Origin: Chloroflexota bacterium | GTDB taxonomy: Bacteria > Chloroflexota > Dehalococcoidia > JACQTR01 | Direction: 5' to 3' | Length of the DNA: 36,092 nucleotides | Assembly (NCBI GenBank): GCA_016210705.1 | Contig: JACQTR010000183.1 | Location: forward strand, 1-36,092 | In this document: positions 1 to 35,328 of the stretch, piece by piece | Layout: each line of letters opens with the position of its first letter | Position numbering within the stretch: position 1 is the stretch's first letter | Made by a program: the position numbers and the translations under genes | Notes under the pieces: model-generated | Seen by the model: only the letters and a program-made list of their open reading frames with translations | Database searches by the model: none | What the model was told of the DNA's origin: nothing

Positions 1-975
1 CAGCAGAGGCACATTAGCTGCCGCACCCCTTTCGATATTCCCATACTCCTTTTTCTGACGGGCGCAGTCTTAGGGGTCTTCCAGGCCACAGACCGTGCCC
101 TAAGTTGGGGAGCATTTCAAACGTGCCTGGCTGCGGTAATGCTCTATTATACCATCGTCAATTATCCAAGACCTCATCTTTTGATAGGGGGAGGAATTGC
201 GGTTACTTCCCTTTTGGCTGGCATAGTAACGGTTGTGGGCTTTAGCAGCGGCATGTCCCCCGGCTCCGGGGCGAATAGTCTAAGCTCTTGGGTTGCTAGC
301 TCCCTACGCGTTCTCCCCCAGTTCCCCAGGCTTCCAGGCCAGACTGAGGCTCCCAACCTTTTAGTCCATGGCCTACTCCTTACATTACTCGTCTCTTTTT
401 TAATATTGGCTGGCTCCGGCCTTTTTGCTAGGCGGATAGCTATTAGGATAACATTTGGGATGCTGAGTTTGGTCTTGCTGGCCATGCTGGTCCCCGCTGG
501 AGGGCAGGCCTACGAGCGTCTAGTGAACGGTACGACCATCAGAGTAAGAATGGACGTGTGGCAGAATTCTATCCTCATGGCAAAGGATTCTTGGTTAACA
601 GGCATAGGTCTTGGCCACTTTCCACTGGCATCCCCAGACTTCTTCCCTGGCCGAAAGCTTACCATACCGCATAATGGATATTTGGAACTCCTTCTCAATT
701 ACGGGATTCTGGGAGCCACGGCGGGTTTGTATGCCTCCGTCGTTGTGGCCAGACTCTTTTGGGACATTCTGCGTTGCGCCAGGGGGCATCCTTGGTTTGG
801 ATTTGCCCTTGGCCTTTTGGCAGCCTTCTTGGGCACCGCCTTTATGGCTATTTTCGAAAGCTCACCAATGGGAATTCCTGCAGCACGGATGGGAAGATAT
901 TTCTATACAGTATCGCCCTTGCCCTGGATGTTGGGTGGTGCCTTGGTCGTTGTCCACCGGCTGGTAACAAAATAG
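1..975 (+). CDS. O-antigen ligase / Wzy_C-family polytopic membrane protein, 5' end cut by the window edge
   Basis: Frame 1 is open from base 1 (no stop before the ATG at 139), so the ORF enters from the left. It is multi-TM and carries the Wzy_C-like signature GIGLGHF...IPHNGYLELLLNYGILG. Confidence 0.75.
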   Translation, partial: QQRHISCRTPFDIPILLFLTGAVLGVFQATDRALSWGAFQTCLAAVMLYYTIVNYPRPHLLIGGGIAVTSLLAGIVTVVGFSSGMSPGSGANSLSSWVASSLRVLPQFPRLPGQTEAPNLLVHGLLLTLLVSFLILAGSGLFARRIAIRITFGMLSLVLLAMLVPAGGQAYERLVNGTTIRVRMDVWQNSILMAKDSWLTGIGLGHFPLASPDFFPGRKLTIPHNGYLELLLNYGILGATAGLYASVVVARLFWDILRCARGHPWFGFALGLLAAFLGTAFMAIFESSPMGIPAARMGRYFYTVSPLPWMLGGALVVVHRLVTK

Positions 976-1010
976 GCTTATATTGGCGCCTACTTATGTG
1001 TCGTCACCTC

Positions 1011-1041
1011 CATTTGGGGCAGCCCATATTGGCTATTTAAA
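1011..1041 (+). promoter_or_regulatory. Conserved 31-nt box, left copy, containing near-palindrome AGCCCATATTGGCT (1021..1034); candidate operator
   Basis: CATTTGGGGCAGCCCATATTGGCTATTTAAA matches the reverse complement of 32689..32720 at 29 positions, with 2 mismatches and one 1-nt indel. It lies about 90 bp upstream of the -35 box at 1127. Confidence 0.5.
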
Positions 1042-1126
1042 ACCAGCTACTTAAACCGATATTATACCCTAGGTTGGGGTTTTTGTAAGGACTTTTCATA
1101 TGCCTCGTCAACGAGATAGAAAGCAT

Positions 1127-1154
1127 TTGCAATACGTCGGAAAAGTGGTAAAAT
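1127..1154 (+). promoter_or_regulatory. sigma70-type promoter candidate, TTGCAA - 16 nt - TGgTAAAAT (extended -10)
   Basis: -35 TTGCAA at 1127..1132; -10 TAAAAT at 1149..1154, preceded by TG at 1146..1147. A near-identical element with the same spacing recurs on the minus strand at 32581..32608. Confidence 0.45.
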
Positions 1155-1164
1155 CGAGGGCACA

Positions 1165-1332
1165 TTGTACTACGACATCGTAGTAGTCGGCGTGGGCCTG
1201 GCAGGCTCAGCTACCTCTAGAGATATCTCCGAGGCTGACTACCAAGTATTCCTGTTTAAAAAGCCCCTCCCAAGGCTCCGCAAATCCAAAATGTGTCTGG
1301 GACAAGACGTGGCTCTAGCGTGCAAGCTGTGA
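1165..1332 (+). pseudogene. 55-codon N-terminal remnant of a GGR-family FAD-dependent oxidoreductase
   Basis: TTG-initiated frame 1 ORF MYYDIVVVGVGLAGSATSRDISEADYQVFLFKKPLPRLRKSKMCLGQ... has a GxGxxG FAD fold start and aligns with the N-terminus of the full-length gene at 31331..32572 ([34 protein letters not shown]). It stops at TGA 1330..1332 after 55 codons, against about 413 in the full copy. It falls below the ORF-track length cutoff. Confidence 0.6.
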
Positions 1333-2276
1333 CAAAGGTCCTTGTCACCGGAGGGGCAGGATATATAGGTTCCAAGCTAATTTCCGCGCTTATCCAAGAG
1401 AAGCATACAGTGAGGGTTTTTGATATACCAGAAGCTCTTAAGAAACCTCTACTCTTTGCTCCTCTGCCATCTCTCGAAACCGTGCCCGGCGACATCAAGG
1501 ACACGGCAAAGCTTCCTTCTTTGCTGCAAGATGTTGATGTCGTTGTTCATCTAGCAGCTTTGGTCAGAGGAGGCGCTGCCCCTGGTACCACGGAAGCCTC
1601 TGCCATGTGGGAAATAAACTACGAGGCTACCTGCCGGCTGGCGGACCTGTGCAGGATCAAGGGCATAGAACGCTTTTTGTTTATATCCACCTGTGGCAAT
1701 TACGGAGGAGCCGACTCAAATCGGCTGGCCAAAGAAGAGGATGCCTTAATAGTCACCTCGCCTTATGCCGAAACAAAGATTAGAGCAGAAGAACATATCC
1801 TGAGCAACGTCAACGAACAATTTCACGCAACAGTGCTGAGATTAGCCACGGTCTTCGGCTCATCCCCCAGGATGAGCTTTGAGCCCCTGATCAACCGCCT
1901 TGTTTACGATGCCGTAGTTAATAAATCGCTAGTGGTTCAGGGGCCCAATGCTTGGCGCCCTTTTGTCCACATCGACGATGTCGTTAAGGCCATTGTCTTG
2001 ACTCTCCGTTCACCCCTAGACCTGGTATCTGGGCAGGTCTTCAACGTGGGCGCTAATTCTATGAACTATACGAAGGCCGATATTGTGCGCATCCTGCAAC
2101 AGTTTGTCCCCGATCTCGCCGTAGAGTTGCACGGCGAAGATCCCCGCAGCTACAAGGTCTGTTTTGACAAAATAGCCCAGATATTAGGCTTCCGAACTAG
2201 TAAAGGGCTGGAAGAGGGAGTGGCTGAAATGGTACAACTGCTAAAAGATGCTCGCCAACATGGTAACGTTCTATAA
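1329..2276 (+). CDS. NAD-dependent epimerase/dehydratase (extended SDR)
   Basis: VLVTGGAGYIGSKL Rossmann motif and catalytic YAETK (YxxxK). The ORF track opens at GTG 1293. GTG 1329 gives the canonical MTKVLVTGGAGYIGS start and overlaps the stop of the upstream remnant ORF (GTGA). Confidence 0.85.
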   Translation: MTKVLVTGGAGYIGSKLISALIQEKHTVRVFDIPEALKKPLLFAPLPSLETVPGDIKDTAKLPSLLQDVDVVVHLAALVRGGAAPGTTEASAMWEINYEATCRLADLCRIKGIERFLFISTCGNYGGADSNRLAKEEDALIVTSPYAETKIRAEEHILSNVNEQFHATVLRLATVFGSSPRMSFEPLINRLVYDAVVNKSLVVQGPNAWRPFVHIDDVVKAIVLTLRSPLDLVSGQVFNVGANSMNYTKADIVRILQQFVPDLAVELHGEDPRSYKVCFDKIAQILGFRTSKGLEEGVAEMVQLLKDARQHGNVL

Positions 2277-7328: not shown

Positions 7329-8230
7329 AAAACCATCCCCTGGTGGCTTTGCTGGTTCCTGTCCACAATGGGTGGGAAGATACTCGTGAGTTCCTGGACT
7401 CCCTGCGCCGGGTAAGTTACCCCAATTTCAAGACCATCATCGTGGACGATGGCTCCACCGATGACACCGCTGAAATGCTGGCCGCAGATTACCCCGAGGT
7501 CATTGTAATCAAGGGCGATGGCAACCTGTGGTGGTCTCGATCGGTGAACATAGCTATAGAGAAGGCTTTGAAACTAGAGGCCGACTACGTCCTTCAGGTA
7601 GACAACGATACCGCGGTGGATAGGGAGTTCATTTCCACCCTGGTGGAGACAGCCCAAGAAAACCCCAACGCTATCATAACCTCCAAGTCCTACTGGTACG
7701 GACAGCCCGATAGGGTTTGGTTTGGAGGCGGTGAGATAGCCTGGTTACGAGGTGGGCTTAAGCAAACCGGTTGCGGCGATATAGATAGAGGTCAATTCAA
7801 CGAACAAAGCGATAGCCAGTGGGCAAGCATAGGCTTCCTCATCCCCATCCCCCTCTTTGCCGAGCTGGGGATGATAGATGCCAGGAGCTTCCCCCAGTAC
7901 TGGGCGGACGCTGACTTCACCTATCGGGCTTATAAGAAAGGGCACCGGGTAATTCTGGAGCCCCGAAGTCTCCTTTGGCACAAAGTTTCTTCCAGTGTGA
8001 GACACCGTATGCCTCAGAGAGCACCTTGGGCCCAGCTCCTTTATTTTCTGACCCATGTCCGCTCCAGATATAACCTAAAAGCCGCTTCATATTTCTATTG
8101 GCGTCATTGTCCGAAAGCGTTGCTCCCGTATGCTTTGGGGCGCTTCTATTTCCCTCTACTGAGAGGTTTCCTCGTCCGTCTGCTTTTCTTCTGGTATAAG
8201 CCCTGGTACCGGAGGCCCTGGGGACTATAA
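7325..8230 (+). CDS. Family 2 glycosyltransferase
   Basis: LVPVHNGWEDT...FKTIIVDDGSTDDT and the DxD-like VDNDT. ATGA overlap with the upstream methyltransferase. Confidence 0.85.
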   Translation: MKNHPLVALLVPVHNGWEDTREFLDSLRRVSYPNFKTIIVDDGSTDDTAEMLAADYPEVIVIKGDGNLWWSRSVNIAIEKALKLEADYVLQVDNDTAVDREFISTLVETAQENPNAIITSKSYWYGQPDRVWFGGGEIAWLRGGLKQTGCGDIDRGQFNEQSDSQWASIGFLIPIPLFAELGMIDARSFPQYWADADFTYRAYKKGHRVILEPRSLLWHKVSSSVRHRMPQRAPWAQLLYFLTHVRSRYNLKAASYFYWRHCPKALLPYALGRFYFPLLRGFLVRLLFFWYKPWYRRPWGL

Positions 8231-8234
8231 AGGC

Positions 8235-10466
8235 TTATTTATAGACTTGCGCCCGCCCGTTATCATAGACCTTCCCCTTGCCCTGGAGCAGACCGCTATC
8301 CGCAATGCTAAGGTAAATAGGCTCACCCAAGGGTACTAGCGGCGGCAGCCTCACCTCCCCACGCTCCACGTTAAACCCCCTCAAATACAGATAGGCACCA
8401 GGTGGCACCTCCGCCTTTCGGAAGAAACCTTGCATTTCAGCCTCGGTTTTCGGACGCTCCCAGCCACCCAGAACTATAATATTGGGCGCATCGGGATACC
8501 CCCAAAAAGTCACCACACCATTAACATCGGCATAGACCTGGGCCTCCGGTGACCCCAGATGTTTGGAGAGCCAGCGGGCGCCTCCCTCCTCGCGTCGATC
8601 GAAGCGGGCGAAGTCCACCTTTGGAGAGAGAGCAAAGGAACTGGGAATATCACCCACCGCCTGGAACACCCAGCCACTTTGGAATAAGAAATAGGGCACC
8701 AGGACAAGAAGCACAGCCGCCAGGGACAGGCGCTCCACTATATCCCGCGCCAGCCACCGACTGATTAGCTGAAATAAAAAGTCTATTCCCAAAACGAAAA
8801 AGGGCGAAAGCAGCAGCAAGCCTACGAAATATAGTCGGTCGGAGCGGAACCCTCCGGTGGTGAAAAAGGGGACGAAGGTCATCGCCAGCGATAGCAAACC
8901 GACAGCAGAAAGCAGAAGGTACAGAGAGGAAAATCCTGTCTCCCGCCGTCTAAGCACCTTTATCGCCATACCTAAGGCTCCTACGCCAATGAGCACCCTG
9001 GTGAAACGACTAAGGTCGGCTGCCAGTCTATACCATAATGAGGGTATCCTTAACGGAGCCATCCCTAGCTGCCGTAAGACACCTTGATCTGTGGACACAG
9101 GGTTAAGAAATTCGTTCAGGCTTTTATACATGTGATCTCCCCAGCGGATAATCTCTTCAAACATCGCCCCTTTCGCAGTATTCATGTACCAAGCGAAGGA
9201 TAATGCAAAGAAGAGAGCTACCAGAGTTCCGCTGAGGATTTCATGGCTATCGCCTGGCATATCATGGCCTGCCCCTCCGATTCGACCACCCGCTGGTCGC
9301 AGTCCAAGAAGTAGGGGTTTAACGGCCAGGGCCAACGCTAAGTAAATAAGCCATAGGTAGGTCATGCCGTAGTAAGAGATTACCATAGAGGCGCCGAAAA
9401 CAATGGTTAGGAACACTTTATCCCATGACCTTCTCTCGTCGGTCATGGTCAAGACAACAAGGACCGCAAAAAGCATGCCCATGCCCTGCTTGGCCAGCTC
9501 CGTGCCGGTGATATAGAAAGCAGGGAAGGCCATCAAAAAGAAGGAGGCCAGGAAAGCCTTGCGAGACTCTATCTGCCGACGGTAAAGGACATAAAGCCCC
9601 AGTGGCACCAAGGAGAAAAACAAGGGATATATTGCTTTGAAAAACCATATCCCGGAGATATCTAAAAAGCGGGTGTAAATAGTGGGCAGTATGGTAACCG
9701 ACAGAGTAATAGCGTATTGAGGGAACCCCGCTGTGGAGCTCCATAGAGAGTTTTGCTCCGTCAGTTTGTAAACCAGGTGTTCCATCCTTACATCCCACCC
9801 TACCAAATTGTCAGTTATCAGTGTCCTGTGGAGTAGTAGGGAGATAGCGATCAGAAGGACAGCTACCGGCAGCAGGCGCTGGGGTATGAATCGGCCCCAA
9901 GCAGCCAACACGACCACCATCGCTACCAGGGGAAACATTACCATGAATAGGATATTATTCTGCTGGAAGTTGAACTGTGCGGCTCCAGCAATGCTCAGAA
10001 GAGGGAGGATAAAGAGAAAAAGTAAGGGCAGCAGAGGGATTCTTTCTCCAACGGACCTCAGGGAGAATACAAAGCCCCGATCAATCCAGTAGCTCAGGCC
10101 CATTAAGAGTAGGACAGCAACGGTAAAGGTGGCAGAGAGAGATAGGAGGGATAGGGGCCGATAAACGCCTATCATAGGATACAACCAGTTGATCAGTAGA
10201 CCGATAAACATCAAAAAGGCCAAGCTCAGGCCGACAGCGTAGAGCAGGGCCTCCACGGGGCTCAGGCTACGGATACGGAGAATGCGAAGGAGCAAGAATC
10301 CGGGCACGAAAGTGAGGTAAACGAAGCCGATAAGCGTTCCTGCTACTGGCAAAGCATAACCTAGTAGGGCCAGGGCTACCACCACCAGGATGCCAATCTG
10401 GATGGCCAGAACCAAGTTAAGGAAGCGGCCTATTGGCCAGTCAATAGGGGGTCGCAAAAGCATCAT
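8235..10466 (-). CDS. Large polytopic membrane protein with a C-terminal soluble domain; GT-C-like glycosyltransferase/polymerase candidate (resembles the archaeal DUF2206 family)
   Basis: 743 aa with about 15 or more hydrophobic segments, followed by a roughly 150-aa hydrophilic C-terminus. The family name comes from recollection of this architecture, not from a search. Confidence 0.55.
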   Translation of the reverse strand: MMLLRPPIDWPIGRFLNLVLAIQIGILVVVALALLGYALPVAGTLIGFVYLTFVPGFLLLRILRIRSLSPVEALLYAVGLSLAFLMFIGLLINWLYPMIGVYRPLSLLSLSATFTVAVLLLMGLSYWIDRGFVFSLRSVGERIPLLPLLFLFILPLLSIAGAAQFNFQQNNILFMVMFPLVAMVVVLAAWGRFIPQRLLPVAVLLIAISLLLHRTLITDNLVGWDVRMEHLVYKLTEQNSLWSSTAGFPQYAITLSVTILPTIYTRFLDISGIWFFKAIYPLFFSLVPLGLYVLYRRQIESRKAFLASFFLMAFPAFYITGTELAKQGMGMLFAVLVVLTMTDERRSWDKVFLTIVFGASMVISYYGMTYLWLIYLALALAVKPLLLGLRPAGGRIGGAGHDMPGDSHEILSGTLVALFFALSFAWYMNTAKGAMFEEIIRWGDHMYKSLNEFLNPVSTDQGVLRQLGMAPLRIPSLWYRLAADLSRFTRVLIGVGALGMAIKVLRRRETGFSSLYLLLSAVGLLSLAMTFVPFFTTGGFRSDRLYFVGLLLLSPFFVLGIDFLFQLISRWLARDIVERLSLAAVLLVLVPYFLFQSGWVFQAVGDIPSSFALSPKVDFARFDRREEGGARWLSKHLGSPEAQVYADVNGVVTFWGYPDAPNIIVLGGWERPKTEAEMQGFFRKAEVPPGAYLYLRGFNVERGEVRLPPLVPLGEPIYLSIADSGLLQGKGKVYDNGRAQVYK

Positions 10467-13713: not shown

Positions 13714-15297
13714 CTACATAAGAAGCTTTCCTTGTTTTTTCAGCTCCCGCACCCTTCGCCTGATCAGTTCCCTTTCTCCCACCGCCTGATGGGATATCCC
13801 CCGAGTTGCCGCAACGCTTCCCTTTTTGAACAGTTCTTTGAGCACCTGGCCATCCATGTCCTCAGGAACAGGCAATCCCAACAGGTGCAGAACCGTAGGC
13901 GCTATGTCATAGACCTGGGCGCCCTCTATCCTCCCGCCAACATCAAAGTCCCCCCCTTGGGCAATTAAAATACCCTCCCCACGATGGGATCCACTAAAGC
14001 TGGTATTGGGCGCGGGGGAGCGAAATATGCTCTTATTAAAAGTATAATCTACACTGCAACTGAAGTCGTTCAAGGCGAAAATTATATCAGGGGCGAGTTC
14101 CAGGTATGGCCCCGAATAGAGGTCTTCCCGGTGGCGAACCACTACTGTTATACCCAGTTGTGAGCATACTTCCTCGAGTCTATCGGTGATTTCTTCCCCT
14201 AGCCTCCCGCGTTCTGAGGCCGAGTCTATAGCTGGGCTCAAAAAGATTCTGCCTGTAGAGGGGTCATGGATGTTAGCGAAGGCCAGGGTCCGTGTCATAT
14301 CTACTTGCTGGATAAAAGAAGCCGGGCGAGCCCTGGCCATCCAGCGCACTTTGTCGCGCATCGGCCGCGGTGCCAGGGTCCATATTTTAGTAAGGGAGCG
14401 ACGGATATCCCAAAGGATGCCGCTTGGTCGCCAAGCCCTGTGAAGATAGCCCTCCCCTTCCAGCCAGGAGTTGGTAAAAAAAGATTGGCTATGAGGCCCA
14501 AAACCATGGTCGGAAACTACCAGGATATTTCCTTTTTCATCAATGCCCTCCATCACCCGGCCCACAATGTCGTCAACCTGCTGCCACATTTGGTCAAAAA
14601 GAGGACGATAATGCTCTGCAGCTTGCCTTTGAAAACAGGGGTGGGCCTCGTCCAAATACTTCCACATAAAATGCTGCATGAAATCGGTGGCCGATATTAC
14701 TACGGTGAGAATATCTATATCTCGGGACAGGAATAGCTCCACAGCCTTTTTATTTATGTTTAGCAAGCGCATCACATCGCTAACGAAAGCAGAGGAACGG
14801 TGAGCATAACGAGGGCTATTCCAGTGAATATGCACCTCATAACCGTTACAGTGGCTGAAAAGCTCATCCTTAAGCTCCCTGGGGTAAGTAAAATCCCTAT
14901 CGAGAAAGGAACCCAAGCCGCCGACCATATATCCATTTATTGGATAAGGGGGGAACAGCCCTGGGAAATTCAAGATACCAACTTTAAACCCTGCTTGGGA
15001 AAGATAATCCCAATAGGCCCCCGATTTTCTAATGGCGCTGGAGTTCCATGCCTTCAGCTCCAGGCCACCCTTCACCGTGGGATTAAGAAAATCAAATACG
15101 CCGGTCTTTCCTGGGTTCTTGCCCGTAGCCACAGAAGTCCATGCAGCCGCGCTAACTGGCGGGAAGGTGCTATGAAGATAACCCCAGGAACCTTCTTTCA
15201 GGAGCTTACCTAAGTAAGGCAACCTGCCATCGGCAATTAATGGGTTTAAGATATCAAAAGTTGCGCCGTCCAGCCCGATCACCGCTAGTTTTACCAC
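13714..15297 (-). CDS. Alkaline-phosphatase superfamily protein (type I phosphodiesterase/nucleotide pyrophosphatase-like)
   Basis: VIGLDGATFD (metal Asp), the nucleophile region HSTFPPVSAAAWTSVATGKNPGKTG, VVSDHGFGPH, and a distal GSHRGEG. No TM segment and no signal peptide. GTG start with AAGGTGA upstream. Confidence 0.8.
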   Translation of the reverse strand: MVKLAVIGLDGATFDILNPLIADGRLPYLGKLLKEGSWGYLHSTFPPVSAAAWTSVATGKNPGKTGVFDFLNPTVKGGLELKAWNSSAIRKSGAYWDYLSQAGFKVGILNFPGLFPPYPINGYMVGGLGSFLDRDFTYPRELKDELFSHCNGYEVHIHWNSPRYAHRSSAFVSDVMRLLNINKKAVELFLSRDIDILTVVISATDFMQHFMWKYLDEAHPCFQRQAAEHYRPLFDQMWQQVDDIVGRVMEGIDEKGNILVVSDHGFGPHSQSFFTNSWLEGEGYLHRAWRPSGILWDIRRSLTKIWTLAPRPMRDKVRWMARARPASFIQQVDMTRTLAFANIHDPSTGRIFLSPAIDSASERGRLGEEITDRLEEVCSQLGITVVVRHREDLYSGPYLELAPDIIFALNDFSCSVDYTFNKSIFRSPAPNTSFSGSHRGEGILIAQGGDFDVGGRIEGAQVYDIAPTVLHLLGLPVPEDMDGQVLKELFKKGSVAATRGISHQAVGERELIRRRVRELKKQGKLLM

Positions 15298-15336
15298 GGC
15301 TCACCTTTCATCTGAGATCTGCACTGTTTCACAGGA

Positions 15337-16113
15337 TCAGCCCAATTCCCCTCGGATAGCGCGGAACATGTCCTGTGGAGTCTCAATGTCGTAATCGACA
15401 TTGACGGTAATCAGCAAGGCGTTCTCGTGATGATCGCCTTTTAGCGCTCCCTCTGACGTTTTCTCTGGCAACGTCCGCACTTTTGCTTCGCCAAAGGCGC
15501 AAAACCCGTGGTCGGAGACCACCACCAGCTCGTTTTGTCCGCTGTCCAGAAAGTTAGAATCGAAGACAAGCTCCCCGATCTTTGCGTCTAATCTTCTATA
15601 CCAGTCAAAAACACACTCCTCGCCCCAATGGAAGTGTTGAACTCTGTCTAAAAAGGTATAAACAGAGATGAGCAAATCCAAGTCTTCCCACAGAAGCTGC
15701 TTAGTCTCCTCGGTGACTCTATAGAGTTCCTCTTCCCACTCTCCCTCATTGGTGGGCAATCCGAAACCCACTGGCTTGAAATTAACCCCGAAGGAAAAGG
15801 GCGGCACCACGAAAGGAACATTCAGGGCTTTGGCCCTTTTCCCCTCTCGGTGCAAAATATCCCAAATGAAGTCCACTTTTATATCCTGCCTTTTTACCAG
15901 CTCGCCGTTAACAACAAAACTCTCATGCCGGTGCTCCTCTGGGGTCTTTCCTGAGAACATACTGCACCAGACCGAGGGTGAGATGGGCTTCTCGGTGAGG
16001 ACTAACTCTTTACACTTACCACTTTGGCATAGACGTTGGAAGTTATTCAGCCGAGACAAATTGGGCCTTATCACGCTCCAAGTGGCAGCATCGATCCCCA
16101 AAACAAAAATCAC
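15337..16113 (-). CDS. Short alkaline-phosphatase/NPP-fold protein (258 aa)
   Basis: [40 protein letters not shown] and GDHHE reproduce the AlkP-core metal and nucleophile positions. The GTG start overlaps the cysN stop (GTGA). Confidence 0.7.
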
Positions 16114-17321
16114 TCCAAAGCCTCCAGCACCACCCCAACCCCAATATGTCGGTTACCTTTCACCAGAACAAACCTGCCCAGCTCAGGAATATCAGAGAAC
16201 CTCTCCACTACCAGAGGCTCCGTGGCCAGAAGAACAGTGGCCGCTTCATTCTCACCTATCTCCGATGGTCCGGCCTCGACTATCGCTCCGGTCTCCGCGC
16301 TTATTTTCTCCTTTATCTCCCTAACCTCACACTTTACTCTATTAGTCCCGCAGCGGAGCTCCAACTCCTCTCCCTTCCCCAAACTCCCATCCAATAAAAC
16401 TACCTCGCCCCAAAATCGCCGTACCGCCATAGGGGCACTTCCCACCAAGCCGAGCACATCCCCGCGCTTAGCTACCCCATCGATTACAAGGCCTACGCTG
16501 TCTCCCGATTGCGCCCGCTCTTGGTCGGCGGGAAACACCCTTATCCGCTCTATCTTAGTCCTCGTATCCGAGGGTTGAACAACTATTTCATCTCCTATTT
16601 TCATCAAGCCAGCAATCACTCTGCCCACGATAATTTCTTGCGATTCAACCCGATATTCCCCCTGAACCACAAACCTTAAGGGCTTCGGCTCCAGACTCAA
16701 GTTCACTTGATCTAACGCTTCTATGAGCGTAGGGCCCCGATACCACTTCATCCGCTGCGATGACCGATAGATGTTTTCTCCTTCTGCTGCTGAGGCTGGT
16801 ATGAACGACACATCGGAGTAGCCAAGGGAAGTCAAAGCCGCGCCCACGTCTTCCCTAACAGTGCGGAAGGACTCTTCACTGTAGTCCAGGACATCCATTT
16901 TGTTTACGACAACGAAGAGCCGCTTTATCCCCAGCATTTTGAGCAGAAAGGCGTGTCTCCTAGTCTGCTCCTGAACGCCTTCCTGGGCTGAAACAACCAA
17001 CACAGCCAGCTCGGCGTGAGAGGCCCCAGTCAACATGTTCTTTATGAATTCCTTGTGTCCTGGTACATCAGCAATGCTATATAGGGCTTTCTTACTCTTA
17101 AACATCACCTCGGTGGTATCTATGGTTCTCTCTTCCTTCAGCTCGTCCTCAAAAGAGTCTATAAAATAAGCGAATTCAAAACGCTTCTTATATTCCTCGG
17201 CCAACTGTTGTATCTCCGCCAGCCGACCTTCTCTTATGCTCTCAGAATCGTAAAGCAGCCTTCCTATTAAGGTAGATTTGCCATGGTCAATATGGCCAGC
17301 AACGACTACGTTCACCTTCAT
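16110..17321 (-). CDS. cysN: Sulfate adenylyltransferase subunit 1 (CysN-type EF-Tu-like GTPase), with no fused APS-kinase domain
   Basis: G1 [10 protein letters not shown]3 DVPGH and G4 NKMD motifs, followed by beta-barrel domains. It is 403 aa and sits directly downstream of cysD. Confidence 0.85.
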
Positions 17322-17330
17322 TCGATTACC

Positions 17331-18131
17331 TCACATATACCCCAAAGCGCGAAGCTTCTGCATAGTAAACGCCTTCTCTTTGTCCTGCGCCCTTCCAGAC
17401 CTCTCCGCAGTCTTGCTCACTTCCAGCTCTTCCACTATCTCATCTATAGTTTTCGAGGTGGACTCTATAGGAAAGGTACATGGCTCACAACCCAAGCTAC
17501 GATACCTTTTACCATCCTTAGCAAAGTACATCTGGTTCACCGGGATATTCTCTTGCCTCACATATTGCCAGATATCCAGCTCCCTCCAATGCAGGATGGG
17601 GTGAACTCTAATGTGGGTGCTTTCCCCAGCAAGGCTTTGGTATTGGTCCCACATTTCTAGGGGCTGATCCTTATAATTCCATCGGAAATCCTCGTCTCGG
17701 GGCGAAAAATACCTCTCCTTAGCCCTTATTCCATGCTCATCTCTCCTTATGGCCAGTATAAGGGCATCGAAGCCATTTTCCTCTACGCATTCCTTCAAGG
17801 CCTGAGTTTTCAATCTAGTACAACATTCAAACTTTCCATTGCCCGGCCCCACGCCCTCCTTGTTCGCCTGCTCGTTTCTGATTATCAATAAACGAAGGCC
17901 CCACTCGTTGGCGATCCTGTCCCTGAAGCTGTACATGGGTTTAAATTTGTAACCGGTATCTATGTGGATAACTGGAAAAGGAATCTCGCCGAAAAAGGCT
18001 TTTCGGCATAGCCAGAGGACAGCGGTACTATCCTTACCGGTACTCCACAGCACTGCTGGCCGCTGAAACTCGGCGTAGGCCTCTCTTAATATATAGACGC
18101 TTCTATTCTCAAGGTCTTTTAAGTCTAGCAT
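17331..18131 (-). CDS. cysD: Sulfate adenylyltransferase subunit 2 (CysD, PP-loop ATP pyrophosphatase fold)
   Basis: PP-loop STGKDS; HIDTGYKF, RRDEHGIRAKERYFSPRD, HPILHWRELDIWQY; C-terminal tail ...KLRALGYM. Confidence 0.9.
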   Translation of the reverse strand: MLDLKDLENRSVYILREAYAEFQRPAVLWSTGKDSTAVLWLCRKAFFGEIPFPVIHIDTGYKFKPMYSFRDRIANEWGLRLLIIRNEQANKEGVGPGNGKFECCTRLKTQALKECVEENGFDALILAIRRDEHGIRAKERYFSPRDEDFRWNYKDQPLEMWDQYQSLAGESTHIRVHPILHWRELDIWQYVRQENIPVNQMYFAKDGKRYRSLGCEPCTFPIESTSKTIDEIVEELEVSKTAERSGRAQDKEKAFTMQKLRALGYM

Positions 18132-31330: not shown

Positions 31331-32572
31331 CTAGCTATCATCCCGCTCACCCCTACTGCTCAAAGCCGATAACAGATTTACCGCCCAACGGGAGGGGAAG
31401 CGAAGGGGTACATGCAAGAACAGCCGAAGCACCGGTGACGCCTTGACCAACTGCTCCATAAGGCGGGATGGAAAATCAATGTCGCCAAACAAGGAGATTC
31501 TCTTTTGGAAGAACGGTGCGCTGAAAAGGCCCAGGAGTTCGTCGATCTCCTCATCCTTCAAGCTAAGGAAGGCCCTCCTTAAATCGATCCCCCTTTCTAG
31601 TTCAGCCCCCAAGTCGGCTTTCCAAGCTATTTCGTATCGGGAAAGAAAGGATTCGGAGAGATCTTCCTTCTCCAGAGCCTCCACCGCCACCCCAGCACAA
31701 TGTCTAGCGGACACCAAGCCCGTGTAAATCCCCCCACCGGAGGTGGGCTTCACTTGGCGAGCGGCGTCCCCCACTAGGAGCACATTGTCGCCATAAGTTT
31801 TCACTGGAGAATAAATGGGGATGGCTTTGGCCCAAAGACGGTCAATCTTAATCCCTTTAAACTGGTTGGGGAAGGCGGCCACCATATTGTTGAACAATTG
31901 CCTAGGGGCAGCGAGAGAGTGGTTGCCGTCCCCTGTTCCAATCCTCACCCGCCCATCCCCTAGGGGTATGATCCAGCCAAACCAGCCGGGAGCTACCGAG
32001 CTACCCACCAAAACTCGGGCAGTGTTTAGCTCGCCGCCATCGAGCCATCCTTCAGCAGCCATGGCCCTAACTACGCCATCGGAGTTGCCCACCCCCAACC
32101 ACCGCGCCACCATGGAGCCGACACCATCAGCTCCAATCAACATTCTGGTGGTTACACTACTGGCCCTTCCGTTGCCGTTGATGGACAGCTTCAGCCCTTT
32201 GCCCTCCCGCTCGATGTTAACCAGCAGGCTATCCAAAAGGAGCTTAGCTCCAGCTCCCTGAGCCTGCTCAGCCAACTTCATATCCAGGGCCGCCCGGTCA
32301 ATGGCCAGGGCGTACACTTTATCCCCACCCGCGTATAGCTGCCTACCCGATGCCGAATGGACCAAGACTCCTTTGATTTCGTTAAGAACTAGGCCGTCAG
32401 AGATCCTGGCCTCTTGTAGAGTTCTAGGAGAAACTAACCCGGAGCAAAATAAGGGCTGACCCACGGATGGACGCTTTTCAATGAGGAGAACTTCAAAGCC
32501 AGCCCGGGCAATATCCCTGGCAGTAGTTGAACCTGCCGGACCGGCCCCGGCTACGACGACATCGTAGTCCAC
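31331..32572 (-). CDS. Geranylgeranyl-reductase-family FAD-dependent oxidoreductase
   Basis: DYDVVVAGAGPAGSTTARDIARAGFEVLLIEKRP dinucleotide fold and LLVGDAA. The ORF track opens at TTG 32608, but that codon lies inside the -35 box of the promoter candidate. GTG 32572 sits 8 nt after the -10 box, making the mRNA leaderless or nearly so. Confidence 0.8.
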   Translation of the reverse strand: MDYDVVVAGAGPAGSTTARDIARAGFEVLLIEKRPSVGQPLFCSGLVSPRTLQEARISDGLVLNEIKGVLVHSASGRQLYAGGDKVYALAIDRAALDMKLAEQAQGAGAKLLLDSLLVNIEREGKGLKLSINGNGRASSVTTRMLIGADGVGSMVARWLGVGNSDGVVRAMAAEGWLDGGELNTARVLVGSSVAPGWFGWIIPLGDGRVRIGTGDGNHSLAAPRQLFNNMVAAFPNQFKGIKIDRLWAKAIPIYSPVKTYGDNVLLVGDAARQVKPTSGGGIYTGLVSARHCAGVAVEALEKEDLSESFLSRYEIAWKADLGAELERGIDLRRAFLSLKDEEIDELLGLFSAPFFQKRISLFGDIDFPSRLMEQLVKASPVLRLFLHVPLRFPSRWAVNLLSALSSRGERDDS

Positions 32573-32580
32573 TGCCAGCG

Positions 32581-32608
32581 ATTTTAACACCTTTTCAATA
32601 AATTGCAA
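32581..32608 (-). promoter_or_regulatory. sigma70-type promoter candidate, TTGCAA - 16 nt - TGtTAAAAT (extended -10), for the long minus-strand operon
   Basis: On the minus strand, -35 is at 32608..32603 and -10 TAAAAT at 32586..32581. Over 36 nt (32579..32614) it matches 1121..1156 at 29 positions. Confidence 0.45.
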
Positions 32609-32688
32609 ATGCTTTTAACCTTCTACGGAACATTAATAGCTTCCTAACTGACCCCAACCTCGGACATCATAAAGGCATAATGAGCTTA

Positions 32689-32720
32689 TTGAAATAGCCA
32701 ATATTGGCTGCCCCTAAATG
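32689..32720 (-). promoter_or_regulatory. Conserved box, right copy, containing the perfect 14-bp palindrome AGCCAATATTGGCT (32696..32709); candidate operator between divergent promoters
   Basis: Its reverse complement, CATTTAGGGGCAGCCAATATTGGCTATTTCAA, matches 1011..1041. The box lies 15 nt from the -35 box of the small-protein promoter and about 90 bp upstream of the GGR promoter. Confidence 0.5.
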
Positions 32721-32735
32721 GGGAGATAAGAAACC

Positions 32736-32764
32736 TTGACAAGGAACTGAGGGTGTGCTAGATT
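32736..32764 (+). promoter_or_regulatory. sigma70-type promoter candidate, TTGACA - 17 nt - TGcTAGATT (extended -10)
   Basis: Consensus -35 at 32736..32741, optimal 17-nt spacer, -10 TAGATT at 32759..32764, and TG at 32756..32757. Confidence 0.55.
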
Positions 32765-32822
32765 CAGCGGTGAGATGTCACAGTCCGTGCGAAGGTGTGG
32801 ATAAGAAGGAGGACTGATTAAA

Positions 32823-33071
32823 ATGGTTTCAACTGTAACCACTACCGTTGTCACCGTAATTAGTACGGTATCCAGCATATCTGTGGTGGCCTCTCTAGGA
32901 CTAGCGGCGGTGCTAACCCTGATCGCCTCTTTGGTGACCAAGGAACTAGCTAGCGCTGGCGGTGGTGTTAGGTTAAGATTGCTAAGCCGCAATCTTAACG
33001 TTTCGGTCTTTCCTTTGTTCTTCGTTTTCTTATTTATCGTTATCCTAAGAGCGCTAGCAGTTCTAGCCTAA
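32823..33071 (+). CDS. 82-aa small membrane protein with a Ser/Thr/Val-rich N-terminus and two hydrophobic segments
   Basis: AAGGAGG at 32806..32812, ATG at 32823, a promoter upstream and a hairpin terminator downstream. 20 of the first 24 residues are S, T or V. I recognise no family. Confidence 0.6.
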   Translation: MVSTVTTTVVTVISTVSSISVVASLGLAAVLTLIASLVTKELASAGGGVRLRLLSRNLNVSVFPLFFVFLFIVILRALAVLA

Positions 33072-33093: not shown

Positions 33094-33127
33094 GCATCAT
33101 GGCATAAGGCCACCTTTCGGTGGCCTT
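33094..33127. terminator. Intrinsic terminator hairpin between convergent genes
   Basis: Perfect 11-bp stem ATAAGGCCACC / GGTGGCCTTAT with a TTTC loop (33094..33119), followed by a T-rich tract on the + strand. It probably also stops the minus-strand CPBP operon, where the U-tract is weaker. Confidence 0.7.
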
Positions 33128-33133
33128 ATTTAT

Positions 33134-34642
33134 TTAGGGGAGAGCGGTGCCCAGAGGTACTAGCAGGCGTTGACCACTGACAAGAGTCCTATCCTGCAAG
33201 CTATTCAATTCTACTATCATCTCCACGGTAGTGCCGTAATAGCTGGCGATTCCAGTCAGGGTATCCCCAGTCGCCACTACGTGAAGGGTCATGGGTTGGC
33301 TAGGCACATTTAGCTGTCGATAAGCGAGGATCGTATTCTTGTCCTCCAGCTTGTTCAACATAAGCAATACATCAATTGTGGTACCCAAGCGCCTGGCGAT
33401 GGAAAAAAGAGTATCGCCAGGCGCAACAGTATAGCTCATCACCCAAGTAGTTGGCGAAGGCTTTGGACTGGCAGTCGGAGTTGTCGTAGGAAGAGGTGTC
33501 GGAGACGCCAAGCCAATCGGCCCAACTTTTATATAGCTAACTATTATCCACCCCACCAGGCCCCCATCATCCCTGACCTGCCACCAAAAAAGTCCATCTT
33601 TTTGCGCCTCTTCTCCCATCACCCAAAGGGCAGCACCCTCTGGCAGAACCCGCAAAATGGCAGAGGTAAGACCGGGAGTCTCCCGAAAATTCAAGCCCGC
33701 GTCCCCAGTGCCGCTCACAGTCGCCAATACCAGGTCTTTAGGCCGAGCAAAGATCGGGGTAGAGGTCGCCGTAGGAACCCAGGCTGTCGTTGGCATGGGA
33801 GTTAAAATGCTGGCAGGTTTGGAATGTGCCCCAGAAACAATGCCCGGAGCCTTGGAGAAAAAGGATATGTCAGGCAATCTTATCTCACCTAGAGGCAGAA
33901 CAGAGATTCCCCATAAGGGAATGAACAAAAAGAGACTGGAATTTAGCAAGCCGTGGGCGAGGGTCGTCCCCAGAATGGAGCCAGTTAGCCTCACAATCCA
34001 GGCAAAAAAGAGGCCAACGGCGAATACGAAAGCTAGCTCTACTACGCTGTAATAGCCCATGTGAAGAAGGCCGAAAAGCGCCGACACGTAAATTAGACCC
34101 CAACCCTGCATCCGCTCCAGGGCAGCCTTTTGCAACACCCCCCGAAAGACCAACTCCTCGGTAAAACCGGTGCCCACTATTATGATAATAGTTGGCAGCC
34201 AAAGGGCGCTGAAGCTGAAGGTATCGGCTAAGGGCTCAGGCTTCAAAATGAGGTACTCCACCGCCCCCAGAGGCAGCCCTATCAGCCCCACCACTACCTG
34301 TAAGGGCAGCCCACGCAGGGTAAGGCCCACATCCCGTCGAGAATAACCCACAAGCCGAACGCAGATGAAGGTGGCTATCAACAGGGGCACAGCGATTATG
34401 GCATACCAGTAGAGGATGAGTATGCTCCCCAGTGGCATAGAAAGGCTGAGAATACGAATCAAAGGAGCCAAGGAAAGACCCAGGTATAACTTGTGGACGG
34501 GAGGATCGCTGACGAGGGAAGCATGGGCCACTAAAGTCAGCAGAAGAAGGGCATGAAAAACGACCCCAGCCAGCGGACTGGCTAAGGTGGTAACCGCCTC
34601 CGCACCACCGATGGCGATAAGATAGAGAAGGAGTACTCTCAC
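33134..34642 (-). CDS. CPBP-family intramembrane glutamic endopeptidase fused to an SH3b domain and two LysM domains
   Basis: CPBP motifs EELVFRG, FGLLH and HGLLN in a multi-TM N-terminal half. An SH3b-like segment follows (GLNFRETPGLTSAILRVLPEGAALWV...WWQV...GWI). Two LysM repeats close the protein (YTVAPGDTLFSIARRLGTT..., HVVATGDTLTGIASYYGTT...). GTG 34642 overlaps the upstream stop (GTGA), with AAGGAGGG just upstream. Confidence 0.85.
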   Translation of the reverse strand: MRVLLLYLIAIGGAEAVTTLASPLAGVVFHALLLLTLVAHASLVSDPPVHKLYLGLSLAPLIRILSLSMPLGSILILYWYAIIAVPLLIATFICVRLVGYSRRDVGLTLRGLPLQVVVGLIGLPLGAVEYLILKPEPLADTFSFSALWLPTIIIIVGTGFTEELVFRGVLQKAALERMQGWGLIYVSALFGLLHMGYYSVVELAFVFAVGLFFAWIVRLTGSILGTTLAHGLLNSSLFLFIPLWGISVLPLGEIRLPDISFFSKAPGIVSGAHSKPASILTPMPTTAWVPTATSTPIFARPKDLVLATVSGTGDAGLNFRETPGLTSAILRVLPEGAALWVMGEEAQKDGLFWWQVRDDGGLVGWIIVSYIKVGPIGLASPTPLPTTTPTASPKPSPTTWVMSYTVAPGDTLFSIARRLGTTIDVLLMLNKLEDKNTILAYRQLNVPSQPMTLHVVATGDTLTGIASYYGTTVEMIVELNSLQDRTLVSGQRLLVPLGTALP

Positions 34643-35328
34643 AACCCTCCTTTGACATCCACCCAAAGGTACAAGGATCGATAGGCCTCGCTGACCCCCT
34701 CTTTATACAGCAGAAACTCCGCTAGCTGTGCCCGCCCCGCCTTGATAGCCTGAAAGCCGATTTCCCCCTCCCACCTCTGCCCATCATCCAAATTTATATG
34801 GCCTATGTCCTTCGTCTTTTCCCCATTGATAGTTATCTCTATACGGTAAACCACAGGCTCCCCTTCCTCATTCACTATACCTAGCTCCACTTTGGCCTCA
34901 TCTCCTAAAGTGATCTCCTGAGGATAGCCCTCTGCTTTCCCATCAAGGCCCAACATATAGAACTCGGTGAACCTCTCGCCGGCCTTAGGCTTAGCAATGA
35001 CATAGGTCAGACTTCCCAACGTCCCCAAAATGGCCAGAGCCAGGATGATGGCCAGCATCCTTCTCCAGACGCTTTGATACCTCCAGCTCAGGAGCAGGCT
35101 AAAGGGAGTCAACTGCCGCCCAGGCTCACGGCGAATAACGGGGAGCGATCTCCAGCGCCGAAGGAAGACAATAACCACCATCGCCAAGATGATGAAGACC
35201 CCCAACAACGAAACAAAAAATAGCCCTACGCCCCCAGGGGTGGAATTAGGTACTAGCCCAATTAAAGATACCCAAGCGAGACTCAGGCTACGGCTTAAAG
35301 CTAAACCAAAGACTGTCCTAATTATCAA
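34639..35328 (-). CDS. DUF1616-like membrane protein (TM segments plus a beta-sandwich-like ectodomain)
   Basis: Three hydrophobic segments, then FTEFYMLGLDGKAEGYPQEITLGDEAKVELGIVNEEGEPVVYRIEI, which matches my recollection of the archaeal DUF1616 core. The TTG start overlaps the upstream stop (TTGA). Confidence 0.6.
   Translation of the reverse strand: MIIRTVFGLALSRSLSLAWVSLIGLVPNSTPGGVGLFFVSLLGVFIILAMVVIVFLRRWRSLPVIRREPGRQLTPFSLLLSWRYQSVWRRMLAIILALAILGTLGSLTYVIAKPKAGERFTEFYMLGLDGKAEGYPQEITLGDEAKVELGIVNEEGEPVVYRIEITINGEKTKDIGHINLDDGQRWEGEIGFQAIKAGRAQLAEFLLYKEGVSEAYRSLYLWVDVKGGL

Follow-up and report, generated by a model that had tools for sequence, protein, structure and literature searches.

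The window analysed here, one entire 36,092-bp contig of an uncultured Chloroflexi metagenome-assembled genome, contains two copies of a short module, which consists of the upstream region and the 5' coding end of a gene of the geranylgeranyl reductase (GGR) family. The copies flank most of a large glycan-biosynthesis locus in inverted orientation and are an old, diverged segmental duplication. The right copy heads the full-length GGR gene and is the parent; the coding part of the left copy, which lies directly upstream of an epimerase gene, no longer evolves as a GGR gene. The best-supported reading of this arrangement is promoter capture, and on the sequence evidence we give it better than even chances. 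The main elements are the following:

1004-1264, forward strand: left (derived) copy of the module, ~160 nt of non-coding DNA and the first ~34 codons of a GGR-like sequence, with protein homology to ~1302
1165-1332, forward strand: relic open reading frame (ORF) of 55 codons, a decayed GGR N-terminus, TTG start with GAGGG 5 nt upstream
1329-2276, forward strand: NAD-dependent epimerase/dehydratase, 315 aa (Pfam Epimerase, 5e-42), first intact gene of the forward array
32473-32726, reverse strand: right (parental) copy of the module, upstream region and first ~34 codons of the full-length GGR-family gene
31331-32572, reverse strand: GGR-family FAD (flavin adenine dinucleotide)-dependent oxidoreductase, 413 aa (Pfam FAD_binding_3, DAO and Lycopene_cycl)

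By blastn, 1004-1264 on the forward strand aligns with 32726-32473 on the reverse strand (E=1.6e-29), the 261 columns being 68.2% identical. When 900-1500 was aligned locally with the reverse complement of 32250-32850, the score was 125, far beyond 300 dinucleotide-preserving shuffles (mean 20.6, standard deviation 2.2, maximum 30). The inverted, diverged duplication of the GGR upstream region and 5' coding end, which had been claimed in a preliminary description of this DNA, is therefore genuine. Its blocks were recovered as well. Block A pairs 1010-1041 with 32689-32722 (29 identities, one 1-nt indel), block B, AGGTTGGGGT, is identical at 1071-1080 and 32651-32660, block C/D shows 29 of 36 identities (1121-1156 against 32579-32614), and the N-terminal peptides of both copies read as they had been quoted. 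Furthermore, an inverted-repeat search of the 36-kb contig returned blocks C and A as the best two repeats, at 1120-1162/32573-32615 (79%) and 1004-1041/32689-32726 (82%).

On protein level, the relic ORF matches residues 1-45 of GGR (BLASTP, 46% over 46 aa, E=6e-12), and this homology, interrupted by a single in-frame codon gap, ends near codon 45-46 (1302). The homologous segment measures ~260 nt by DNA and ~300 nt by protein. Of the extent first proposed, 1005-1332, the part from 1004 to 1264 or 1302 stands, and the last ~30-65 nt before the epimerase start are unmatched: for this junction tail (1265-1330) blastn found no DNA homologue anywhere in the window, and on protein level there is only the weak extension to ~1302. 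The left flank showed no other similarity to the window in a blastn search within the contig.

The longest identical run between the copies is 14 nt, at an overall identity of 68%. An assembly artefact is judged unlikely, because no assembler makes copies from one template that differ by ~30% and carry indels.

Parental copy and decayed stub

The annotated start of the GGR gene, TTG 32608, would give a protein of 425 aa and falls inside the -35 element proposed below. The orthologues fetched from other Chloroflexi contigs (L001-L008, 58-68% identity) all begin with M[DN]YD and align with GTG 32572. Due to this, GTG 32572 is probably the true start, in agreement with the coordinates of the preliminary description, and the annotation is probably 12 codons too long.

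The orthologues also bear on the polarity of the duplication. In L001 and L004 a DUF1616 gene lies upstream and heptose/glycan genes lie downstream of GGR, with PAP2 also upstream in L001, and in L006 GGR is located inside a glycan array. The window has its DUF1616 gene at 34639-35328, on the strand of GGR and upstream of it. Since the right copy heads a full-length gene and shares this synteny with the three contigs, it is the parent in ancestral position, and the left copy is derived. The upstream non-coding DNA of the orthologues (L001-L008) is essentially unalignable to either copy, with a faint TTAGAATCG in L002 only; GCATTTGCAAT is matched at 10/11 positions 20 nt before the L006-L008 orthologue, but this place does not correspond and such a match is expected by chance. 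That the copies can be aligned with one another and the orthologue upstream regions cannot be aligned with them implies that the copies share a more recent origin.

GGR-family genes are found inside or heading glycan loci in the window (31331-32572) as well as in L001 (1455-3283), L004 (282-2530) and L006 (8749-12454), and DUF1616 is a recurrent neighbour in these Chloroflexi loci, the PAP2 phosphatase occurring once. Homologues of the protein carry the name geranylgeranyl reductase family. The recurrence in glycan loci hints at a role in the reduction of a polyprenyl lipid carrier rather than in membrane-lipid synthesis; a predicted geranylgeranyl reductase reportedly reduces dolichol phosphate in a haloarchaeon.

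The left coding part is a truncated remnant, since only residues 1 to ~45 of 413 are matched and nothing further of GGR is present in the window. Its first 102 coding nt are 69% identical to the right copy; the right copy compared with the orthologues of other contigs gives 72-78% for five of the six and 62% for L002. Over 34 codons, the differences between left and right are distributed as 11/7/14 on the three codon positions, compared to ~6/1/17 in the orthologue comparisons. Outgroup polarisation with the orthologues assigned 17 changes to the left lineage and 6 to the right one and left 9 ambiguous; at first and second positions alone, the left lineage has 13 changes and the right one 2. 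The glycines of the GxGxxG motif are still present in the stub (GVGLAG), but lysine stands where the FAD fold has its invariant acidic residue (E/D), at the end of beta-2 (VLLIEK to VFLFKK). The flat codon-position pattern and the lost acidic residue indicate that the stub no longer evolves as a flavoprotein and has lost the constraint of the GGR family. No database homologue or entry was found for the 55-aa stub, and exact-sequence look-ups of the window's own proteins returned no records.

Nevertheless, the frame of the stub is open. The non-coding part has ~8 gap events in 164 columns, none of them a multiple of three, and the 138 nt of the stub are free of frameshifts, for which the probability is 0.001-0.035 at the non-coding indel rate or half of it. 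A kept start together with the lack of a stop has a probability of ~0.14. This suggests that either the frame matters, as a translated leader coupled to the epimerase, or the truncation occurred late. The TGA stop of the relic ORF overlaps the GTG start of the epimerase in a GTGA at 1329-1332, and no Shine-Dalgarno (SD)-like (GGAGG-like) sequence was found upstream of this GTG. The sequence therefore has the features of translational coupling, with translation of the stub itself being a prediction.

Promoter-like sites in the two copies

The conserved elements of the non-coding part are listed below, with P1 and P2 denoting two candidate promoters:

1120-1156, forward strand: block C/D with P2, left; -35 TTGCAA at 1127-1132, 16-nt spacer, TG extension, -10 TAAAAT at 1149-1154
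32579-32615, reverse strand: block C/D with P2, right; -35 TTGCAA at 32608-32603, 16-nt spacer, TG extension, -10 TAAAAT at 32586-32581
1010-1041, forward strand: block A, left, with the imperfect palindrome AGCCCATATTGGCT at 1021-1034
32689-32722, reverse strand: block A, right, with the perfect 14-nt palindrome AGCCAATATTGGCT at 32696-32709
1071-1080, forward strand: block B, left, beginning 6 nt after the -10-like TATTAT
32651-32660, reverse strand: block B, right, beginning 6 nt after TATGAT (32671-32666)
1036-1065, forward strand: P1, left, TTTAAA-18-TATTAT from a consensus scan, weaker than P2
32694-32666, reverse strand: equivalent of P1, right, TTTCAA-17-TATGAT, 8/12 matches, below the scan threshold and unreported by the scan

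The preliminary description had named TTGCAA-N16-TAAAAT as a promoter element common to both copies, and the consensus scan found it independently in each of them, both times with a TG extension. As a consensus match, TTGCAA-16-TGnTAAAAT fits the sigma-70-type extended -10 promoter with 9 of 12 positions in both copies. All 14 defining bases of P2 as well as the length of its spacer are identical between the copies, which has a probability of ~0.007-0.02 at a background identity of 70-76%. This retained site makes the promoter capture that had been proposed plausible.

The -10 element of P2 is separated from the start codon by 10 nt on the left (TTG 1165) and by 8 nt on the right (GTG 32572). 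Leaderless genes, also those of Chloroflexi, have been proposed to be marked by a -10-like TANNNT some 12 nt ahead of the start codon (PMC3160421). Counted from the first T of the -10 element, the distance to the start codon is 14 nt on the right (GTG) and 16 nt on the left (TTG), so that the right copy is near to this signature and the left copy less so. GGR thus plausibly is near-leaderless, because its -10 element ends only 8 nt before GTG.

P1 repeats its geometry in the two copies. In both of them its -35 element starts 2 nt past the palindrome of block A and the predicted transcription start coincides with the first bases of block B, and the distance from A to B is 36 nt on the left versus 35 nt on the right, with the sequence between being only about half identical. 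Activator-dependent promoters usually have such a layout, with a weak -35 element next to a palindrome. From this geometry, P1 may be activator-dependent. Transcripts from P1 would contain the GAGGG, so that the stub could be translated from an SD sequence and coupled to the epimerase.

The palindrome is symmetric at 14 of 14 positions in the right copy and at 13 of 14 in the left copy. AGCCAATATTGGCT is the only perfect 14-nt palindrome in the window, where 2.2 are expected by chance. No regulator gene was seen in the window and no further copies of block A appeared in exact-pattern scans of sequence collections. The right block A has the GGR promoter region on one side and, on the other, a divergent promoter-like site belonging to an ORF of 82 codons (32823-33071, forward strand). 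This ORF encodes a strongly hydrophobic, membrane-type protein without a Pfam match and has AGGAGG 10 nt upstream; its promoter-like site (TTGACA-17-TAGATT with TG, 32736-32764) is strong and lies just beyond the duplicated segment.

Two further observations concern the surroundings of these sites. Inside the left copy, a promoter-like CTTACA-17-TATAAT (10/12 matches) is present on the reverse strand at 1061-1089, antisense towards the 3' end of the preceding Wzy_C gene, and has no counterpart in the right copy. At 33104-33129, between the 82-aa ORF and a convergent CAAX-protease/SH3/LysM gene (33134-34666, reverse strand), lies a perfect 11-bp GC-rich hairpin, ATAAGGCCACC-TTTC-GGTGGCCTTAT, which looks like a bidirectional terminator.

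The glycan locus around the copies

Pfam scans of the window displayed a large glycan-biosynthesis locus with convergent arrays on the forward and the reverse strand. The gene in front of the left copy is the following:

1-975, forward strand: Wzy_C-type (O-antigen ligase/polymerase-type) gene, open from base 1 and running off the contig

From this open frame it follows that the glycan locus extends further left than the left copy does. After Wzy_C, the forward strand carries the NAD-epimerase, a radical SAM protein, a DegT aminotransferase, a Polysacc_synt_3 flippase, two methyltransferases and a family 2 glycosyltransferase (GT2), ending at 8230. The reverse array runs from 32572 to 8235 and is headed by the GGR-family FAD oxidoreductase. 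Behind it follow heptose-type genes (GHMP kinase, SIS isomerase, NTP-transferase/HAD) and, further on, many glycosyltransferases, a CysD/CysN-like pair, phosphodiesterases and a DUF2206 membrane protein. Both convergent arrays therefore open with the module, the forward array from 1165/1329 and the reverse array from 32572, as had been described. The further statement that the two copies bracket the glycan locus is valid as an approximation, and fails in its strict form since the Wzy_C gene sits outside the left copy.

No close relatives of the forward array were found in the protein database. The stops of GT2 (8230) and DUF2206 (8235) are 4 nt apart, and the junction at 8228-8237 contains no terminator-like hairpin, so that converging transcription would collide or overlap there. 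On the reverse strand, 13714-18131 holds the CysD-like (PAPS_reduct) and CysN-like (EF-Tu-type GTPase) pair together with two type I phosphodiesterase-family genes, which suggests a sulfated or phosphodiester-modified glycan.

The GC content is uniform across the window (0.49-0.54), and composition thus gives no indication of a horizontal acquisition of the forward array. A duplication of the whole locus was rejected as well, because no recent paralogues connect the two arrays; their most similar pair, epimerase against epimerase, is 24% identical.

Explanations of the duplication and known systems

In the reading that is preferred here, an old intragenomic segmental duplication would have copied ~260-300 bp from the head of GGR, i.e., the upstream control region and the first ~34-45 codons, and the copied piece would have landed inverted directly upstream of the epimerase, the opening gene of the forward arm. 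The retained TTGCAA-16-TGnTAAAAT would be a working sigma-70-type promoter in both copies and give the same transcriptional input to both arms. The weaker promoter-like site downstream of the block A palindrome would fire into block B and may make this input activator-dependent. Finally, the stub would persist as an open leader ORF of 55 codons, whose GTGA overlap may deliver ribosomes to the epimerase lacking an SD sequence of its own. From the sequence, it is plausible that the two arms are regulated together and that the stub couples translation to the epimerase. Taken as a whole, i.e., an old duplication of the GGR head, inverted before the epimerase, with shared promoter input and a leader ORF, this scenario is placed a little above even.

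Several points weigh against promoter capture. The promoter scans give consensus matches only, on sequence level. P2 in the left copy would leave only 3-5 nt of leader ahead of TTG, so that the mRNA would lack the GAGGG and offer translation a poor context; as a result, transcription driven by P2 and SD-led translation of the stub are incompatible on one transcript. Furthermore, the orthologues L004 and L005 carry GGAGG at the corresponding position, and for this reason an ancestral state with a longer leader is likely. The palindrome is imperfect in the left copy and statistically not unusual alone. In addition, Wzy_C is co-oriented and ends 190 nt upstream with only a weak terminator-like hairpin in between, so that read-through could supply transcription without any copied promoter.

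No carriers of the module were found among relatives. The exact-pattern scans for block A in genome and metagenome collections gave chance hits only, namely an Aminicenantes-type coding site, one Bacilli contig and one other contig (L012) with unrelated flanks, the hits falling in coding sequences unrelated to the module. Because no relatives with the module are available, there is no phylogenetic footprint, and the constraint discussed here comes from comparing two copies, which is a further point against the preferred reading. The Aminicenantes-type hit is a chance match of a 19-20-nt block A pattern in a conserved coding stretch of one gene on seven Aminicenantes-like contigs (L010, L011, L013-L017), whose flanks are unrelated to the window.

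The main rival is a neutral scar with read-through from Wzy_C. Here, the left copy would be a functionless remnant of an old rearrangement, the forward operon would be transcribed by read-through or from another promoter, and the blocks would be a chance clustering in a segment of uniformly ~70% identity. The proximity and orientation of Wzy_C and the degraded left palindrome fit this explanation. The same is true for the identity of the non-coding part, 70% counting gaps or 76% at aligned positions, which equals the 69% of the stub. The preliminary description had seen in the alternation of blocks and drifted spacers a footprint of functional elements. When match and mismatch columns were permuted, the best 30-column window (28/30, in block A) had p=0.034, and neither the windowed variance (p=0.15) nor the longest run (p=0.25) was significant. 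The island pattern alone is weak evidence of constraint, and the footprint is weakly supported.

However, the equal identity itself implies some constraint, because the non-coding DNA drifts in both lineages and the stub in one. The neutral rate per lineage was taken from the divergence of the left lineage at first and second codon positions, ~19-24%, an estimate from 34 codons only, which also counts against the preferred reading. Of simulated pairs, 0.7-1% reached the observed identity at a rate of 0.21 and <0.1% at 0.25; at 0.17 it was 10-12%, which leaves room for a scar. The scar likewise has to account for the 14 promoter bases and the spacer length that were all kept at the probability given above, for a stub free of frameshifts next to non-coding DNA with ~8 indel events, and for an ORF open exactly to the epimerase start. 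This argues, with moderate strength and from few sites in a comparison of two copies only, that selection kept at least the promoter-like block and probably block A. By our estimate, a neutral scar has about one chance in four.

A more elaborate reading would be a maintained regulatory cassette, in which an activator-type palindrome by a weak -35 element, a strong near-leaderless promoter and a GGR leader ORF kept open solely for coupling to the epimerase synchronise both arms. We regard this form as improbable. If it were true, the 5' end of a gene would have been turned into a leader peptide ORF.

An in-place decay starts from a different ancestor. Here, a second full-length GGR paralogue with its own promoter would have headed the forward operon and been deleted beyond ~45 codons, leaving the module as a truncated pseudogene. 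The frame and the GxGxxG motif kept over ~46 codons without a frameshift are expected of a gene that was intact for long, and the position of GGR varies inside the glycan arrays of relatives (L006). Nevertheless, the nearest epimerase relatives (L018 and L020, 51-52% identity) have no GGR upstream, there is no other recently paralogous gene pair between the arrays, and no GGR-derived sequence is present downstream of 1302. Also the flat codon-position pattern and the lost acidic residue argue against a long function as a flavoprotein, and this origin appears improbable.

Several polysaccharide operons are known to be preceded by conserved non-coding elements, and blocks B and C would be transcribed if the weak P1 is a real promoter. 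Due to this, a structured 5' leader RNA common to both operons was considered, a riboswitch or an element of processive antitermination in the manner of JUMPstart/ops or LoaP. Such a structured cis-regulatory RNA was rejected as very improbable, since neither region had an Rfam match even at E<=1, the consensus fold reached only -4.9 kcal/mol (alifold) with one compensatory pair, and the folding z-scores of the single sequences were ordinary (-0.8 to +1.0). Furthermore, the ops core GGCGGTAG is absent on the forward strand, its three occurrences on the reverse strand (10805, 20972, 35648) are far from the modules, and a NusG-like gene did not appear in the Pfam scans of the ORFs.

That the copies are terminal inverted repeats of an invertible or mobile 31.5-kb segment, as their inverted orientation around most of the locus might suggest, is hardly credible, because the repeats are a promoter and a gene start rather than element ends, are 68% identical with no identical run above 14 nt, and are accompanied by a uniform GC content and by no recombinase, integrase or transposase domain in the Pfam-scanned ORFs; repeat identity and Pfam scans give no sign of a present-day recombination substrate or inversion system.

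If the copied promoter is active, a copy of ~260 bp wires a second glycan block to the control of the first with no dedicated regulator per operon, and the remnant of a gene can live on as a leader that is translated. With two promoters, one palindrome and one leader ORF, the locus is a small testable example from the poorly studied phylum Chloroflexi.

Several known systems resemble parts of this arrangement. The -10-like TAAAAT 8-10 nt before the start codons recalls leaderless genes (PMC3160421), with the difference that the left TTG would lie 3-5 nt from the predicted transcript end, which is an unfavourable context. The GTGA overlap of the stub ORF and the epimerase is similar to the ATGA/GTGA coupling of neighbouring genes, and here the upstream partner is a decayed gene fragment instead of a functional gene.

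JUMPstart/ops elements precede enterobacterial polysaccharide operons. The likeness is a shared conserved non-coding element before more than one polysaccharide operon, suggesting common control. In contrast to these elements, the module has no ops motif and no leader structure, the window contains no NusG/RfaH-like gene in the Pfam scans, and the element arose by duplication within one locus and was not found elsewhere in the collection scans.

Gene remnants and truncated pseudogenes occur at the junctions of bacterial O-antigen and capsule clusters. The stub is likewise a short decayed fragment of a locus gene at a block boundary which has lost the constraint of its parent family. Unlike those remnants, it is accompanied by an upstream region with an intact promoter-like site, and its open frame ends on the next start codon.

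Promoter capture by segmental duplication is reportedly the origin of the rnk-citT module in the Cit+ lineage of the Escherichia coli long-term evolution experiment. Both cases have a duplicated donor promoter with a 5' coding fragment placed directly upstream of another gene or operon and a donor stub at the junction. The present duplication differs in being inverted and 31 kb away instead of tandem, in being old (~30% diverged) instead of recent, and in that its effect on expression is a prediction from the sequence.

Duplicated promoters and gene fragments are well known, and so are remnants of genes in polysaccharide loci and the coupling of stop and start codons. The duplication and its stub are a real, old and fairly ordinary case of a promoter copied together with a decayed gene stub, which involves no new mechanism and belongs to this well-known class.

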